Positions 1 to 57,815 of a stretch of DNA of 64,000 nt are shown piece by piece. Position 1 is the first letter of the stretch. The number at the start of each line of letters is the position of its first letter. The position numbers and the translations under genes were made by a program. This stretch comes from Candidatus Freyarchaeum deiterrae (GTDB lineage: Archaea; Asgardarchaeota; Jordiarchaeia; Jordiarchaeales; Jordiarchaeaceae), in contig CP147778.1 of assembly GCA_037305845.1 (NCBI GenBank), positions 1,248,001 to 1,312,000 on the forward strand, written 5' to 3'. A model generated the notes under the pieces. The model saw nothing but the letters and a program-made list of their open reading frames with translations, was not told the DNA's origin and did not search any database.

Positions 1-1
1 G

Positions 2-1426
2 TATCTCGTTGAAAGGAAACCCACCATAGGAGGCCTAGCAGCTCAGCTTGACAGAACCTTCGCTACCGACGATTGTGCTATCTGAATATTGGCCCCGAAA
101 ATGGTTGAAGCCTCTAAACACCCAAACATTAAACTTTACACCTACACCGAAATCAAAAAGGTAGCCGGAAGCCCAGGTGAGTTCGTGGTCACACTGCTTA
201 AGAAACCAAGGTACGTAGACGAAACCAAATGCACGGGCTGCGGATCATGCACTGAGAAATGCCCCGTTGAGGTGCCCGACGAGTTTAACTATGGACTCGG
301 AACCAGAAAAGCGATTTACATACCCTTCTCCCAAGCTGTGCCAAAAATTGCTCTAATATCAATGGAAGACTGCAGTCAGTGTAAATCCTGCCAACGCCAG
401 TGTCTCGCGGGTGCAATAAACTACGACCAGAAACCTGAGGAGATCGATATCAAAGTGGGAGCAATAGTGGTAGCATCAGGAACAGAGGTATATGATGCAG
501 CGAAGTATGGAGACTATGGCTACGGCATCTATGAGGATGTCATAACGCAAGCTGAGCTTGAGCGAATGCTGAACCCCACAGGTCCCACAAGCGGACGGAT
601 CCTCAGAGTGTCCGACAGAAAAACGCCTAAACGCATAGTCATGATCCAATGTGTTGGATCAAGGGACGTGAAAAAGAACGCCTACTGCTCAGAAGTTTGC
701 TGCATGGTAGCTTTAAAAAACGCCAAACTCATAAAACAGGAACACCCCGAAGCCGAGGTGACAATTTGGTACATAGATATACGAGCGGTAGATGAAGGCC
801 ACGAAGAGTACTATAGAAGAACCAGAGAATACGGAATAAATTTCATCAGGGGAATGCCCGAAGTCTCATTCAACGGTAAAAGCCTAGTGGTTGAAGGTGA
901 AAACACACTCACAAATGAATTCGTGAGCATGGAGGTCGACCTAATCGTTCTCTCCACGGCAATGGTCCCATCAAAAGCGGGAACAGAACTCGGTAAAATC
1001 TTAGGCCTTGATAAGGCTGCCAGCGGTTTCCTGAAACCGTTGCACACAGGACTCAGTCCTCAAGAGACAAAGACCCGCGCAATCTTTATCTGCGGTACGG
1101 CACAGGGCCCGAAAGACATATCCTACTCTGTCTCCTCAGCCAGAGCAGCAGCCTCAGCAGCAACAGCTTGGTGTCTAGCTGGCGAGGCCAGTCTTGAGCT
1201 AATAACCCCTGTGATCATAGAGGAACTATGCGTTGGTTGCAAGAGGTGCGAGAGAAGCTGTCCCTTTGGAGCCATAAAGGTTATCGACGGTGTCGCAAAA
1301 GTGGATGAAACGATGTGCAAGGGTTGTGGAATCTGTGTCGCTTCCTGCCCCGCACACGCATTGGATCTCAGATATTATCGCGATAAACAAATACGAGAAG
1401 AGGTAGCAGCTACTATAAAAACTTAA
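2..1426 (+). CDS. hdrA: Heterodisulfide reductase subunit A-like flavoprotein, selenocysteine-containing (5' partial)
   Basis: Frame is open from position 2: YLVERKPTIGGLAAQLDRTFATDDCAI-TGA(83-85)-ILAPKM, matching the HdrA motif DCxxCxLxPKM. Downstream CxxCxxCxxxCP clusters, QCVGSRD, YCSxVCC and GPKDI. Confidence 0.95.
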
Positions 1427-1427
1427 G

Positions 1428-1503
1428 CGTCCTTATGCCTAATGAGTCCATCAGCAAAAGCCCTGCCTGGTGGATGAAAGCTCTGGTAGCAACCAGAAGG
1501 ACG
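1428..1503 (+). promoter_or_regulatory. SECIS-like element 3' of hdrA (eukaryote-type core)
   Basis: ATGA 1442-1445; helix GTCCATCAG 1446-1454 / CTGGTGGAT 1467-1475; AAAA 1456-1459; GA 1476-1477; closing helix CGTCCTT/AAGGACG. Confidence 0.85.
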
Positions 1504-1545
1504 AAAAACAATTATTTAAAAAAAGTGTATGTTGGAGGAAAACAG

Positions 1546-1974
1546 TTGACCTATCAAGTTGTGATGTATGCGTGTTGGAAATGAGGTTATGGAGCAGCCG
1601 ATCTGACAGGTGTTTCCAGACTATCGTACGATACCGCTATTAGAATTGTCCGTTTAAGGTGCACCGGACGACTTGACAGCTCACTACTGCTTGAGCCAAT
1701 TTGCAATGGCGCAGATGGTGTAATGGTAGTCGGATGCCATATCGGCGAGTGTGACTTTGAAAAAGGAAACATTATGGCAGAAAAACACGTCAAATTTGTT
1801 AAAAGAATACTTGAGAGACGCGGACTCGGCGGAGATAGAGTAAACATATACTATTGTTCAGCAGCTGAAGTCGGCCGATTCAAAGAATCCATTGATGACA
1901 TGATGAAGAAACTTGAGAAGCTTGGACCCAACCCCATACGCGAGCAAAAAATAATTACGGTTACCCCTGAATGA
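1546..1974 (+). CDS. mvhD: Hydrogenase iron-sulfur subunit MvhD/VhuD, selenocysteine-containing
   Basis: GGAGGA at 1534-1539, TTG start 1546: MTYQVVMYACWK-TGA(1582-1584)-GYGAADLTGVSRLSY...RLRCTGRLD...GADGVMVVGCHIGEC. In frame with track ORF 1723..1974. Confidence 0.93.
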
Positions 1975-2041
1975 TTCCGAATCAGTAAATCTCGAAAGGT
2001 TCGGAGGACAATCCTCGTAAGCGGAGGATTAGGTAACTGTA
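1956..2041 (+). promoter_or_regulatory. SECIS-like element at the 3' end of mvhD
   Basis: ATGA 1971-1974; helix TTCCGAATC 1975-1983 / GGTTCGGAG 1998-2006; AAA 1987-1989; GA 2007-2008; closing helix TACGGTTACC/GGTAACTGTA. Confidence 0.85.
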
Positions 2042-2071: not shown

Positions 2072-3520
2072 TTGGTAAAAAATTTGAAGGACGAACTGGA
2101 TGCAACATTAGAAGCCGTAAACAGTTTCAGGGTACGCGCATGGTTAGAAGGAGAAAAAGAAATTCTTGAGTGCGGCAAATTAACACATGAGGAATGGGAA
2201 AAACTCCTAGATTATTTTGTAGACGATGAAACAGAGCGAAGAAAAGTTTTGATAACTCTAAAAAAGTTAGGGAATGCGACTTTACCCCAACTAGAACAAG
2301 AATTAGGAATACCTAATTTTAATATTAGAAAGCACCTCCGACTTTTGGAATACGAAAAGTTAGTTGAAAGAAGTGATGAAAGTAAGGGTGATTCTGAAAC
2401 AGTCTATAAACCCGCTTTAAAGTCGGAACTGTCAAAAACCCCTTATGAAAAAATCAAGTTTATTGTGGATGAAAAGCTCTGCGCAGACTGTGGAGCTTGC
2501 GTAAGCTTTTGTCCGGTTAATGCAATAACAATTGTGGATGAAGCCCCCGTAATTGATGAGAACAAATGTATTGGATGTGGAATTTGCAACTATGTAGCCT
2601 GCCCCAGAACTTTCCTTTTTCTGGACCTTATGAGAGATTATATAAAGGGGGCGTCCTGCAATCTGGAGCAGGAACCTATAGCATCTTATAAAAACGCGTT
2701 CTCAGCCCAAACTAAAAGGGAAGAAATAAGAAAGGTTTGCCAAGATGGAGGCATAGTCACATCTCTCCTAACCTACCTTTTTGATCATAAATTGATAGAT
2801 GGTGTTTTAGCAGTTAAAAAGACGGGAGAAAACTGGGTATCGGAACCCGTCGTCATAACAAACAAAGAGGAACTGCTTCAAACAGCAGGTACAAAGTACG
2901 AGGTTACCCCCACGCTTGTTGGACTTGAAAAAGCCAAAAAAATGGGGCTTAAAAAAATTGCTGTAGCGGGAACCCCCTGCCAAATTCAAGCGGTTAGAAA
3001 GTCCCAAGTCTTTTCAGACAGGTTACAAGAACTCATGGGTGACATCGCATTTATAATAGGAATATTCTGTATGGAAAACTTTGCGTATCAGACTATGAAG
3101 AAAATTTCTGAGGAGTACTGCAAGGTTAGCCTAGAAAACGCCCGTAAGATGGACATAAACAAGGGGCAATTCTCAGTACATTCCAAAACAGGCGAAAAGA
3201 CATCGGTACCAGTTAAAGAGGTAACAAGCCTAGCGAGAGAAGCTTGCCACATATGCCCAGACCTTACAAACGAGCTCGCAGACATATCAGTGGGCTCCAT
3301 TGGATCGCCACCCGGCTGGTCAACTGTCCTCATTAGAACAGAAAGAGGAAAGGAAGTTTTTCAAAAGGCTCAGGATGAGGGATACCTGACCTCAAAGCCA
3401 TTGGAGGAAGCGGAAACAGGATTACCCATGGTGATAAAACTAGCAAAAGGGAAAAGAAAAAGAAACCTGGAAAAACTAGAATCTAAAAGAGCAGAGGGAA
3501 AATATGCCACCTGCTTTTAA
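2072..3520 (+). CDS. FrhB/FdhB-family F420-binding subunit with N-terminal helical and winged-HTH region and 2x[4Fe-4S] domain
   Basis: QDGGIVTSLL, AGTKY, GTPCQI, GIFCME, CHICPD, ADISVGSIGS. HTH-like ATLPQLEQELGIPNFNIRKHLRLLEYEKLVE. SD GGAGGA before TTG. Confidence 0.85.
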   Translation: MVKNLKDELDATLEAVNSFRVRAWLEGEKEILECGKLTHEEWEKLLDYFVDDETERRKVLITLKKLGNATLPQLEQELGIPNFNIRKHLRLLEYEKLVERSDESKGDSETVYKPALKSELSKTPYEKIKFIVDEKLCADCGACVSFCPVNAITIVDEAPVIDENKCIGCGICNYVACPRTFLFLDLMRDYIKGASCNLEQEPIASYKNAFSAQTKREEIRKVCQDGGIVTSLLTYLFDHKLIDGVLAVKKTGENWVSEPVVITNKEELLQTAGTKYEVTPTLVGLEKAKKMGLKKIAVAGTPCQIQAVRKSQVFSDRLQELMGDIAFIIGIFCMENFAYQTMKKISEEYCKVSLENARKMDINKGQFSVHSKTGEKTSVPVKEVTSLAREACHICPDLTNELADISVGSIGSPPGWSTVLIRTERGKEVFQKAQDEGYLTSKPLEEAETGLPMVIKLAKGKRKRNLEKLESKRAEGKYATCF

Positions 3521-4937: not shown

Positions 4938-6209
4938 TTATTTTTCAACTTCTGCTTCAAATTCACATAACTCATCACCAGTCGCTATACAGTTTGTTTC
5001 TCTGCAAAACCACTTGTTTCCTGTAACGCCTTCTAAAATACCTGCCATAATGCTCTCAAATATCAGACTAACTTTATGATCAGATTTTCCGTAGTAAAGT
5101 GCAAATGTTTCAAAATAAGATATTTTGAGTCTACCAGACTCTAGACTTCCCTCCTTTTTGATTAGTCTTCCCCACCCTCGAATTAGTATATGGTTTATTG
5201 CTGCGTCTAGCAATTCATTTCCCTCTAGGCCATATTCTGATCTAAATAATTTTGTAATTTCCAGACCCACCGCTTTACCGAAATTTTTTATGAATTCTCC
5301 GCATTCATTTATTTCCAAATTTTTCTCAAGCTCTTTATACAATAATAAGAAAGTGTTTAGAGGTATAATCAAATATTCTATATTATGGATTGAAAGTGCT
5401 CCGCTCTCCCGATAAGAAATACTTCTTTTCAACTCATCAAAAACTGGAGCCAGAGAGGGAATTGTTGAGAAATTATTTTCAGAAATGGTATAAGCATATC
5501 TTTGTTGTAAATTTGTTATATTTGACTCTAAAATTGGGGATTTCAACACTTGAATATATGGTTGTTTTACTCCTCCATTTTCTACCGAACTGAGTTCTAC
5601 TACAAAGTCCGCAAAGTGCATTAATGTGTTTATTACGCGGTAATCATGCAAGTCGCGATTAACGAAGCCAGTGATAAGATATCCTTTTTGCTTTGCATTT
5701 GTTGTCAGCTTTCTAAACATTTTTAAAACGGGTCCTGGGCCAAAATCAATGATGGAGGAACTAAAATTCTGGTACGAAACCAAAACGGGGGTTTCTGGAA
5801 AACTTTTTTTGATCTGATCCCTTAAAAAAAGAATTTCGTACATGATTTTATTCTGATCGTTATTTATTCTGATTATACCTTTAAGATTATTCAAATCCTC
5901 CTTGGAAGCTTCCTCCGAAGCGATATCTACATAGTAAAACCTACCTTCATCCAAACTTTTTTCTAAAAAAGGAAGTTCTTCCGCCGCAAACCTACTTTTA
6001 GTATCATCAAAAAGCATGGAAAATGGTAGGCTTGTACTTACAAAGATACAACCTGCTCCTTGTTTAATGTGGTTTAGATTAATTAAATCGCAGAGAGTTA
6101 TCGTATCGTTGAGAGTCAAAGAATCGCATATGAACAATATTGAAGTACATTCATCTAGATTGCCCAGAGCCTCGTCTATAAAATTTATTAAAGTTTTTTC
6201 TATCTTCAA
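4938..6209 (-). CDS. KaiC-like pseudo-ATPase plus V4R domain protein, paralog 2
   Basis: Same motifs (GRFYYVD, NFSSSIIDF, VLKMFRKL, GWG, CRETNCIATGDELCEFE). Confidence 0.75.
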   Translation of the reverse strand: MKIEKTLINFIDEALGNLDECTSILFICDSLTLNDTITLCDLINLNHIKQGAGCIFVSTSLPFSMLFDDTKSRFAAEELPFLEKSLDEGRFYYVDIASEEASKEDLNNLKGIIRINNDQNKIMYEILFLRDQIKKSFPETPVLVSYQNFSSSIIDFGPGPVLKMFRKLTTNAKQKGYLITGFVNRDLHDYRVINTLMHFADFVVELSSVENGGVKQPYIQVLKSPILESNITNLQQRYAYTISENNFSTIPSLAPVFDELKRSISYRESGALSIHNIEYLIIPLNTFLLLYKELEKNLEINECGEFIKNFGKAVGLEITKLFRSEYGLEGNELLDAAINHILIRGWGRLIKKEGSLESGRLKISYFETFALYYGKSDHKVSLIFESIMAGILEGVTGNKWFCRETNCIATGDELCEFEAEVEK

Positions 6210-56474: not shown

Positions 56475-57482
56475 TTATTTTAAAACTGTCGACTGCGGCA
56501 GATTGCACTTGTACCAATCAATTGTTTTCTTTAATCCTTCTTTTAGCGATATTTTGGGTTCATACCCCAATATGTTTCTTGCTTTTCTGATATCTGCTAC
56601 TCTTCTCAAAGTATCTTCGTAGTTATCTCCATAGAATTCAGTATAGGGTATATGTTTTGGTTTAATTTTATTTATGTTATCTGTTAGCTCTAATATGAGG
56701 TCGGCTAGTCGATTAATTGTTATCTCTTCTTCATGTCCAAGATTAAAAATTTCTCCGATACTTTGTTCCTTTTCAACTGCGAGAAGAGTACCTTCCACTA
56801 TGTCTGTTATATAAGTGAATCCTCTTGTCTGTTTTCCATCTCCATGTACTAAGGGGGGGTTACGCTCAAGAACTCTTTTTATAAAAATAGGTATTACCGC
56901 ACCGTAATCACTGGATTCCTGTCTTGGACCATAAGCATTAAAGTATCTTAATATTGTTACGGGGAGCCCTTTCTTGTGATGATATGCAAGAAGCATATGT
57001 TCATCTAAAGCTTTTGTTGTTGAATAACACCATCTAAAAATATTGGTAGGGCCAAGAATTCTATCCGAGTTTTCACTAAGTGGAACATTGACATTTTTAC
57101 CATATACCTCACTGGTGGAGGCAAACAAAAATAGTTCAACATGGTTTTTTAAGGCACCTTCTATTACGTTGTGGGTACCAAACGTATTTGTTAATATCAC
57201 TTTTAACGGATTGTCCATGTATTTTTTTACACCGACTACTGCAGCTTCATGAATAATAATATTAACATTCTTAGAGGCTTTTTCCACAACTTTTTTATCC
57301 AAAATACTGCCCTCAATAAATACAAAATTTTTCTTTTGCAAATGATTCTTAATGTATTGAATACGGCCACTACTTAAATCATCTAGCACTACAATTTCGT
57401 TATCTTCTATCAGGCTATCCACTAAATGCGAGCCGATGAATCCAGCACCGCCTGTAACCAATATTTTTTTACCAGAAATCAT
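56475..57482 (-). CDS. NAD-dependent epimerase/decarboxylase (UDP-glucuronate decarboxylase-like)
   Basis: TGGAGFIG, ASTSEVYG, RWCYSTTK, RYFNAYGP. Confidence 0.88.
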   Translation of the reverse strand: MISGKKILVTGGAGFIGSHLVDSLIEDNEIVVLDDLSSGRIQYIKNHLQKKNFVFIEGSILDKKVVEKASKNVNIIIHEAAVVGVKKYMDNPLKVILTNTFGTHNVIEGALKNHVELFLFASTSEVYGKNVNVPLSENSDRILGPTNIFRWCYSTTKALDEHMLLAYHHKKGLPVTILRYFNAYGPRQESSDYGAVIPIFIKRVLERNPPLVHGDGKQTRGFTYITDIVEGTLLAVEKEQSIGEIFNLGHEEEITINRLADLILELTDNINKIKPKHIPYTEFYGDNYEDTLRRVADIRKARNILGYEPKISLKEGLKKTIDWYKCNLPQSTVLK

Positions 57483-57815
57483 TGCTTCTCACCAGAGAGC
57501 TGCCTTGTTGCATAATTAGCTCTGTTTACTTTGTTTAGTACTCAAAAGGGCGTAAAACGTATTTTCTTTCCTTCTCCTATATTTCTTTCCTTTGTGATTT
57601 AAATCTTTAATTGGCTGTGCCTTCTAGAAGTATTATTTTATTTCTCTAGAGTAGGCTTTATGGCTAACGGATTCTTTATAGTAAAATTTATTACTTAATT
57701 CATTAGTAAATAATACGCTGTGAATGGAGTTTGAACAAGTCTAATTATCCACTTTTTGATGAAAAGAAGCGGACGGGTCTTTTCCAGGTCGCCTTTGGAA
57801 GGGAGTGACAAACTA

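Follow-up and report, generated by a model that had tools for sequence, protein, structure and literature searches.

Selenocysteine insertion sequence (SECIS) elements of a eukaryote-like type have been described in Asgard archaea, and the text of Mariotti et al. 2016 (PMC4989117) gives the lokiSECIS as an AUGA motif, a 9-bp stem, an 11-nt loop and a GA on the 3' side. The model of Huang et al. 2024 (PMC11227280), as worded in its text, consists of a core, an upper stem and a loop together with an 'internal loop and lower stem', and there the 11-nt loop ending in A-G defines a Lokiarchaeia subset, not the general Asgard model. For the methanococcal vhuD SECIS, the text accompanying Fig. 4B of Mariotti et al. 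2016 (PMC4989117) speaks of a 'short extra stem' with AUGA and GAC/AAC. How a SECIS in the 3' untranslated region (UTR) is coupled to the archaeal ribosome is an open question, and Asgard SECIS serve as a bridge in models of how the eukaryotic selenocysteine (Sec) system originated. Here we describe two elements of this type, one directly 3' of hdrA and one directly 3' of vhuD, in a 64,000-nucleotide window (bases 1248001-1312000) of the single-contig 3.58-Mb genome (40.7% G+C) of Candidatus Freyarchaeum deiterrae, an Asgard archaeon of the Jordarchaeia/Freyarchaeia. Both are predicted to fold as a three-way junction with a side hairpin on the 3' side, and comparison with other genomes suggests that this branched fold is real, is under selection and represents a general Asgard plan.

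The closest described relatives of the two elements are the Asgard type I eSECIS-like elements, of which the lokiSECIS is one (texts of PMC4989117 and PMC11227280). Like these, they lie in the 3' UTR, at or over the stop codon of genes of the hdrA and vhuD types and within a few dozen nucleotides 3' of a selenoprotein gene with a UGA at a Cys site; they have the AUGA...[G/A]A core around an upper stem of 7-15 bp, which is 9 bp without mismatch in both, and an A-rich apical loop that falls within 8-20 nt and has adenines close to the 5' end (CAAAAGCCCUGC, 12 nt, in the hdrA element and AGUAAAUCUCGAAA, 14 nt, in the vhuD element); and both are missed by the search tools for eukaryotic and methanogen SECIS. 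They differ from the lokiSECIS in the loop, which in the hdrA element starts with CAAAAG and ends with GC and in the vhuD element ends with AA, and from the models in the published texts, figures lying outside the comparison, in having a side hairpin and a junction. A further difference is that Lokiarchaeota hdrA and vhuD reportedly share one SECIS behind vhuD (text of PMC4989117), while hdrA in the window has its own; L020 has no SECIS in its short hdrA-vhuD spacer.

In the vhuD SECIS of Methanococcales and Methanopyrus, too, the main stem is flanked by AUGA 5' and GAC/AAC 3', as the text of PMC4989117 indicates, and the loci of this kind that we compared likewise show a basal helix and a 3' side hairpin, for example GCCCCU-AUGUG-AGGGGU closed by GCCGGAGA/UCUCCGGC, although that text speaks of an extra stem and not of a branched fold. 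Their main stem carries the methanogen (eaSECIS) GAA/A bulge with G-C clamps, whereas the 9-bp helices in the window are continuous. With eukaryotic SECIS (Rfam RF00031, forms 1 and 2) the window elements share the tandem sheared G.A core of kink-turn (k-turn) type formed by AUGA...GA, the unpaired apical adenines and action from the 3' UTR; the eukaryotic elements, however, are an unbranched succession of helix I, internal loop and helix II bound by SBP2, and in the window a helix of 2-4 bp leads instead into a three-way junction, both in the minimum free energy (MFE) fold and in the conserved, covarying structure. Rfam gave no match at gathering score in the window, and no SECIS family at E<=10 on 1400-2080. 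Branched SECIS are not described in the texts of Mariotti 2016, Huang 2024, Sun 2021, Peiter and Rother 2025 or a 2026 review, the figures and supplements of which lay outside the search and may show a drawn arm; full-text literature searches combining SECIS with three-way junction, and SECIS with Asgard and kink-turn, returned nothing relevant.

Unconstrained RNAfold gives the three-way junction as the MFE structure of both elements: at -30.0 kcal/mol for the vhuD element (1952-2045; z -3.24, with 0 of 200 shuffles as good) and at -27.8 kcal/mol for the hdrA element (1424-1507; z -3.57, 1 of 200). The fold has four helices (coordinates in Table 1), namely the basal helix P1, the C helix P2 of a k-turn, the 9-bp non-canonical helix P3 with its A-rich loop, and P4, a hairpin placed in the non-bulged strand between P2 and P1; P1, P2 and P4 meet at the junction. 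The original prediction, made from the letters of the sequence, had proposed two eukaryote-like SECIS composed of AUGA, a 9-bp helix, an A-rich loop, GA, a side hairpin and a basal helix that share a branched topology. All of these coordinates agree with the sequence, and both the AUGA/GA character and the junction were recovered; to that description we add a short helix of 2-4 bp, P2, which separates the junction from the GA core. In the hdrA element A1497 is common to the P4 hairpin and the 3' strand of P1, and P2 is extended to 4 bp (GCUU/AGGC) in relatives from the same genus. P4 of the vhuD element can alternatively be read as a 5-bp outer stem and a bulged A followed by UCG-UAAG-CGG.

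We compared the hdrA-vhuD loci of five genomes of the same genus, five of a second family in the same order, and more distant Asgard genomes. All ten Jordarchaeia relatives have the hdrA-type element, as does one further Asgard genome (L019); the side hairpin is present in 12/12 elements, the junction fold in 11/12 and [AG]UG[AG] at the AUGA column in 11/12. Across these 12 orthologues 96.7% of the P4 cells are paired, as against 2-58% in slid registers; CUGG/CCAG is retained, the closing pair is U-A in five, C-G in five and U-G in one, and two pairs are compensated. The pairing of P1 persists through extensive sequence change, as is apparent from CGUCCUU/AAGGACG, AAUCCUU/GAGGAUU, UUAAUCC/GGAUUAA, AUGGGUC/GACCCAU, UUGAGGG/CCCUCAA and GCACCC/GGGUGC. 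A similar pattern is seen in the vhuD element, in which 96.6% of the P4 cells are paired among 11 Jordarchaeia and the two families differ by compensated changes at three pairs (A-U/G-C, G-C/A-U and C-G/U-A).

A wider scan, using one genome per species, yielded 80 vhuD loci from Lokiarchaeia (now Promethearchaeota), Hel-, Thor-, Hod-, Hermod-, Borr- and Jordarchaeia and from Methanococcales, and almost all of them have a common plan. A 5' strand leads, after a few nucleotides, into G-A-AUGA and a 9-bp helix capped by an 11-nt loop; GA-C is then followed by a hairpin of 4-7 bp and by a 3' strand complementary to the first. Parsed strictly, 57 of the 71 non-identical vhuD SECIS contain the full junction compared with 17% of flank shuffles, and constrained MFE folding finds it in 48/71 compared with 26% of shuffles, the latter count being too low for Methanococcales because of their extra 2-bp helix. 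With 25 Loki-type elements aligned by MAFFT alone and not fitted to any model, the named structure is 82.8% paired, a value reached by none of 500 shuffles, with P1 84% paired and five of its six pairs compensated. When 55 vhuD SECIS are placed on a covariance-model alignment, P1 is 89.9% paired and all six pairs change on both sides (one column, for example, has CG 23, AU 18, UA 4 and GC 2), P3 is 93.3% paired with 9/9 pairs covarying, and slid registers give 41-50%; a hairpin of at least 4 bp lies between the 3' GA and the 3' strand of P1 in 45 of the 55. Covariation in P1 and the compensations in P4 between the two Jordarchaeia families support the proposal of the original prediction that selection acts on the structure. 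Furthermore, the 24 nt following the 3' GA in 90 vhuD and selD elements fold with a mean of -6.6 kcal/mol, compared with -3.2 for shuffles of the same sequences and -0.8 for a stretch lying 45 nt further 3'.

The branch is not confined to vhuD. We took the selD 3' UTRs from 30 Asgard genomes and located a core in 22, the majority of which share the P1/P2/P3/P4 plan in unrelated sequences and with a type II core (examples in Table 1). In the genome studied here an hdrA-mvhD fusion gene has a SECIS of the same plan at 5926-6020 (-), scoring 34.6 bits with a covariance model trained on Asgard vhuD SECIS (R2), by which the vhuD element of the window scores 44.2 bits (E 3.8e-7 against the whole genome). 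This model, although trained solely on Asgard sequences, also finds the Methanococcales vhuD SECIS at full length with 25-34 bits; neither R2 nor a second model, R1, matched elements of the hdrA or selD types. In many classes the arm follows GA-C immediately and at a fixed distance, whether the element belongs to vhuD, selD or hdrA, and the branch recurs in three gene families and more than 100 elements. The branched SECIS subtype put forward in the original prediction is thus upheld as to the branch, but it is not special to the two elements in the window, being general in Asgard vhuD, selD and hdrA and in Methanococcales vhuD; the arm is present in other SECIS of the lineage, and compensatory changes are found in P1, P2 and P4.

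The residues around the core have the signature of a k-turn, 5' G-AAU-GA / 3' GA-C, in which the end of a canonical helix is followed by a 3-nt bulge and tandem G.A pairs; in the vhuD element of the window these are G1969, A1970-U1972, G1973-A1974, G2007-A2008 and C2009. The G four positions before the core GA and the C after the 3' GA form a G-C pair in 53 of the 55 vhuD SECIS, and the next P2 pair is A-U in 20 and U-A in 13, while Thor-type selD elements have UCC/GGA with the bulge C-G-U. The C helix of this k-turn is only 2-4 bp long and opens at once into the junction with the arm and the basal helix. A comparable arrangement is the k-junction of the thiamine pyrophosphate (TPP) riboswitch, a k-turn made three-way by a third helix in the non-bulged strand (Wang, Daldrop, Huang and Lilley 2014; PMC4005666). 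Both have the third helix in the non-bulged strand on the C-helix side and the sequence signature of a C helix, a 3-nt loop and tandem G.A/A.G pairs, and in the SECIS 1-4 nt or pairs separate the -1n position from the start of the arm. The TPP riboswitch has an unrelated function, and the likeness is one of topology alone, known for the SECIS from the predicted fold. Inspected by eye, the P4 and apical loops show no consistent complementarity.

The genome contains a complete Sec machinery, with tRNA-Sec, SelB, SepSecS and SelD all present. SepSecS (2.9e-131) and SelB (1.1e-87) are encoded next to each other, and SelD is itself Sec-containing, with an in-frame TGA. The tRNA-Sec gene lies at genome positions 810384-810536 (-) and has a 9-bp acceptor stem, a 4-bp T stem, the anticodon UCA and a discriminator G. 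Its D-loop holds an insert of about 28 nt and its T-loop one of 32 nt; once both inserts are taken out, aragorn reports tRNA-SeC(tca). Because the gene is interrupted by these two introns it was missed both by Rfam, which found no tRNA-Sec in the whole genome or in 803000-822000, and by aragorn on the unedited genome, which called only 9-17 tRNAs without a tRNA-Sec among them. So small a number in 3.58 Mb points to widespread multi-intron tRNA genes. A 'tRNA-SeC' called by aragorn at low threshold (L118 1860-1954) has no likeness to tRNA-Sec and was rejected.

The selD gene has a peculiarity of its own, a 30-nt in-frame insert with a TAA at genome positions 2458220-2458249 (NDVY[S-VNLLDLHA-stop]AIGATDV). 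Once this is removed, the protein aligns residue for residue with Asgard SelD lacking it. Within the insert lies a hairpin, GUAAAUC-N5-GAUUUAC, in which the stem is invariant and the loop differs in all six genomes of the genus, and the open frame is shortened likewise in all ten Jordarchaeia genomes (251 aa versus 329 aa). The insert could be an mRNA intron of bulge-helix-bulge type or a site of bypass.

The reading that we prefer, with a probability of about 0.75, is that these are two functional Asgard-type, eukaryote-like SECIS with a four-helix fold combining a k-turn and a three-way junction, through which the upstream UGA codons are read as Sec. It draws on the observed anatomy, conservation, covariation and gene context of the elements and on the complete Sec machinery of the genome. 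In such a mechanism each SECIS would recruit SelB with Sec-tRNA(Sec) to the in-frame UGA codons upstream. P2 may be too short to hold a k-turn by itself, and coaxial stacking on P4 or P1, in the manner of a k-junction, would fix the kink; P1 would insulate the domain from neighbouring coding sequence in closely packed genes; and the P4 loop, often GCA or GCG, could add a contact for a candidate archaeal SECIS-binding factor or for SelB.

Several points weigh against this reading. We infer Sec insertion, folding, helix stacking and any binding at these loci from sequence and predicted fold. The 55-element alignment was fitted to the covariance model and leans towards it, and the shuffle statistics overstate the support because the sequences are related; the P4 compensations in Jordarchaeia reflect essentially one split, that between the two families. 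In the broad alignment of 55 elements P4 is just 71% paired, because the arm varies in length and register, and RNAalifold on plain MAFFT alignments recovered the core helix alone, because arm and basal helix do not line up in them. The MFE structures account for just 5-12% of the ensemble, P2 and P4 compete for one or two nucleotides, and P1 is unclear in the vhuD element of the second Jordarchaeia family. The SECIS of the fusion gene has an alternative, unbranched closing helix (GUAG/CUAC), and in the TPP k-junction the third helix enters at the k-turn itself, whereas in the SECIS the 2-4 canonical pairs of P2 intervene. Junctions arise by lenient criteria in 17-26% of shuffled flanks as well, and some hairpin in 39% of them. 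This last observation, together with hairpins of 4-7 bp being common, would suit the view that the branch is an artefact of the folding program or a chance feature of a G+C-richer flank beside a real SECIS; that view is already disfavoured, and the compensatory changes in three helices, the positional control (-6.6 versus -0.8 kcal/mol) and the recurrence across gene families leave it hardly credible.

It is also conceivable that the SECIS proper is the published unbranched AUGA-helix-GA hairpin, with the 3' hairpin serving separately, for instance at the transcript end or in stability, and the basal helix being incidental. The models in the text of PMC11227280 need just the core, upper stem and loop, the fusion-gene element can close without the arm, and in Loki-type elements the 3' strand of P1 runs into a U tract (GGGGUUUUU) that is a possible archaeal terminator. 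Both window elements, however, are intergenic and are followed by ribosome-binding sites rather than U tracts, P1 encloses the core and the arm together and covaries in 6/6 pairs, and the constant distance of the arm from GA-C in vhuD, selD and hdrA of many classes would be hard to reconcile with a separate hairpin, so that we regard this as very unlikely. More attractive, if still doubtful, is the suggestion that P4 is mainly a sequence-specific docking site, whose GCA/GCG loop (here AGCA and GUAAGCG) would be bound by the Sec elongation factor of archaea or by a candidate SECIS-binding protein in the role of eukaryotic SBP2, the junction serving just to present the loop. GC[AG] occurs in 45 of the 90 vhuD and selD P4 loops, a five-fold enrichment over the 10% expected from composition, non-homologous SECIS of this one genome have the motif in common (AGCA, GUAAGCG, GCA, AAAAGCG and AAAAGCA), and the GUAAGCG loop is kept in 10/11 Jordarchaeia from two families (AUAAGCG in L041) while the stem changes; no SBP2 homologue is known in archaea according to the texts of PMC4989117 and PMC9723677. 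Set against this, about half of the loops called by RNAfold lack the motif, as do most arms in Methanococcales (AUGUG, AAAGUA), and according to the text of PMC4989117 methanococcal SelB reportedly does not bind the SECIS. A docking site sharpens the preferred explanation of a functional four-helix SECIS and does not replace it.

We can tentatively extend this explanation to a proposal, to which we give about the same, less than even, chance as to the docking site, that a four-helix, k-junction-like fold is ancestral to all archaeal AUGA-type SECIS (Asgard vhuD, selD and hdrA, and methanococcal vhuD), that its GCR arm docks an archaeal SECIS-binding factor or a surface of SelB, and that eukaryotic SECIS lost the arm when SBP2 took over. 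The conserved arm, junction and k-turn signature alter the structural model behind searches and evolutionary comparisons, present descriptors of which cover the core, upper stem and loop, and they offer an improved covariance model with which to find selenoprotein genes of Asgard archaea. Mutants could be made in the existing Methanococcus reporter system, whose own vhuD SECIS has the same branch, and the arm RNA could be used as a pull-down bait, which, if this proposal is true, would be ready for finding the SECIS-binding factor.

Table 1. Features of the hdrA-vhuD locus in window coordinates, with examples of selD SECIS
Feature	Position	Strand	Details
hdrA (heterodisulfide reductase A), 3' two thirds	1-1426	+	frame continues beyond window start; stop TAA 1424-1426
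hdrA in-frame UGA (Sec)	83-85	+	context DDCAI-U-ILAP, read from sequence
hdrA SECIS, full three-way-junction unit	1428-1503	+	begins 2 nt after hdrA stop
hdrA SECIS P1, 5' strand	1428-1434	+	CGUCCUU; pairs with 1497-1503
hdrA SECIS P2 (k-turn C helix), 5' strand	1437-1438	+	GC (G1437-C1438); pairs with GC 1480-1481 (RNAfold)
hdrA SECIS AUGA core	1442-1445	+	5' half of tandem G.A quartet; sequence
hdrA SECIS P3	1446-1475	+	9-bp helix 1446-1454/1467-1475; 12-nt apical loop 1455-1466 (CAAAAGCCCUGC)
hdrA SECIS 3' GA of core	1476-1477	+	sequence
hdrA SECIS P4 side hairpin	1482-1497	+	UCUGGU-AGCA-ACCAGA; RNAfold
hdrA SECIS P1, 3' strand	1497-1503	+	AAGGACG; sequence, RNAfold
vhuD/mvhD-type gene (FlpD family)	1546-1974	+	TTG start after GGAGG; stop UGA 1972-1974; PF02662 5.9e-36
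vhuD in-frame UGA (Sec)	1582-1584	+	context CWK-U-GYGAAD; Cys-homologous site
vhuD SECIS, full three-way-junction unit	1956-2041	+	its AUGA includes vhuD stop codon
vhuD SECIS P1, 5' strand	1956-1965	+	UACGGUUACC; 10 bp, pairs with 2032-2041
vhuD SECIS k-turn, 5' strand	1968-1974	+	U1968-G1969 (P2, with C2009-A2010), bulge A1970-A1971-U1972, G1973-A1974
vhuD SECIS AUGA core	1971-1974	+	TGA of core = vhuD stop
vhuD SECIS P3	1975-2006	+	9-bp helix 1975-1983/1998-2006; 14-nt apical loop 1984-1997 (AGUAAAUCUCGAAA)
vhuD SECIS 3' GA of core and conserved C (GAC)	2007-2009	+	GA 2007-2008, C2009
vhuD SECIS P4 side hairpin	2010-2030	+	AAUCCUC-GUAAGCG-GAGGAUU; RNAfold
vhuD SECIS P1, 3' strand	2032-2041	+	GGUAACUGUA; sequence, RNAfold
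FrhB/FdhB-type F420-dependent oxidoreductase beta subunit	2072-3520	+	two Fer4 motifs; PF04432 6.3e-48, PF04422 1.5e-24
selD example, this genome			GCGGCA/UGCCGC + CCAUCCU-GCA-AGGGUGG
selD example			GAAGCAGC/GCUGCUUC + AGCC-AAAAGCA-GGCU
selD example			UGGCG/CGCCA + CCGUU-GCUC-AACGG
selD example, Thor-type			ACCG/CGGU + GCUGC-CGCAA-GCAGC

Elsewhere in this genome, pattern scans, both strict and looser with a link to a UGA-containing frame, gave mostly noise, with four of 36 hits credible, and a weak covariance-model hit of 13-16 bits at window positions 57421-57502 (-) proved to be the start-codon region of an NAD-dependent epimerase gene and not a SECIS. A small UGA-containing gene at genome positions 775968-776336 (+), a frame of 122 codons with an in-frame TGA (ERIHA-U-GGSRVE), is followed, within 775968-776440, by a clear junction-type SECIS, GGGGGUU/AAUCCCC + GACGG-AAAAGCG-CCGUU, the core of which is AUGA...AA. 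Behind a gene for a Prx-like selenoprotein (GIN-U-PYC), at genome positions 582950-583200 (-), lies a domain that a 9-bp helix, AGAUUUGGU/ACCAAAUCU, closes; within this element (~583120, -) an inner 11-bp helix and then GAAA are found, with no AUGA 5' of the helix, and it falls outside the plan of the other SECIS.

The genes in the window are arranged in the order hdrA, vhuD and frhB-like, the last belonging to the same cluster and starting 31 nt past the vhuD SECIS with GGAGG upstream. The hdrA frame is open from base 2 given readthrough of the TGA at 83-85, a UGA at the site where, according to the text of PMC4989117, HdrA of methanococci and Lokiarchaeota has Cys or Sec, and its product has Fer4 domains (Pfam) in the C-terminal part. 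The hdrA C-termini adjoining vhuD are 82-92% identical in the five genomes of the same genus, and the closest vhuD loci (83-87% identity) are from metagenome-assembled genomes named Candidatus Jordarchaeia, Jordarchaeum madagascariense and Freyarchaeota. The archaeon comes from a wetland and its DNA is contained in wetland and freshwater sediment metagenomes, and contigs from RNA libraries (three runs, two studies) match exactly to parts of hdrA 1-868 only, among them the part with the UGA at 83-85. Between the hdrA SECIS and vhuD the spacer (1504-1545) is A/T-rich (AAAAACAAUUAUUUAAAAAAAG) in all of the genus relatives, and it is only a guess that it may hold an archaeal terminator and/or a TATA-like promoter separating the hdrA and vhuD transcripts, which, if real, would account for the separate hdrA SECIS. 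Orthologues of vhuD are present in 36 of 41 related genomes, the majority with an in-frame TGA, and in four of the five genus relatives (L009-L012) there is a second in-frame TGA where the window has a Cys (VVGCHIGEC), so that the number of Sec residues in VhuD varies within a single genus.

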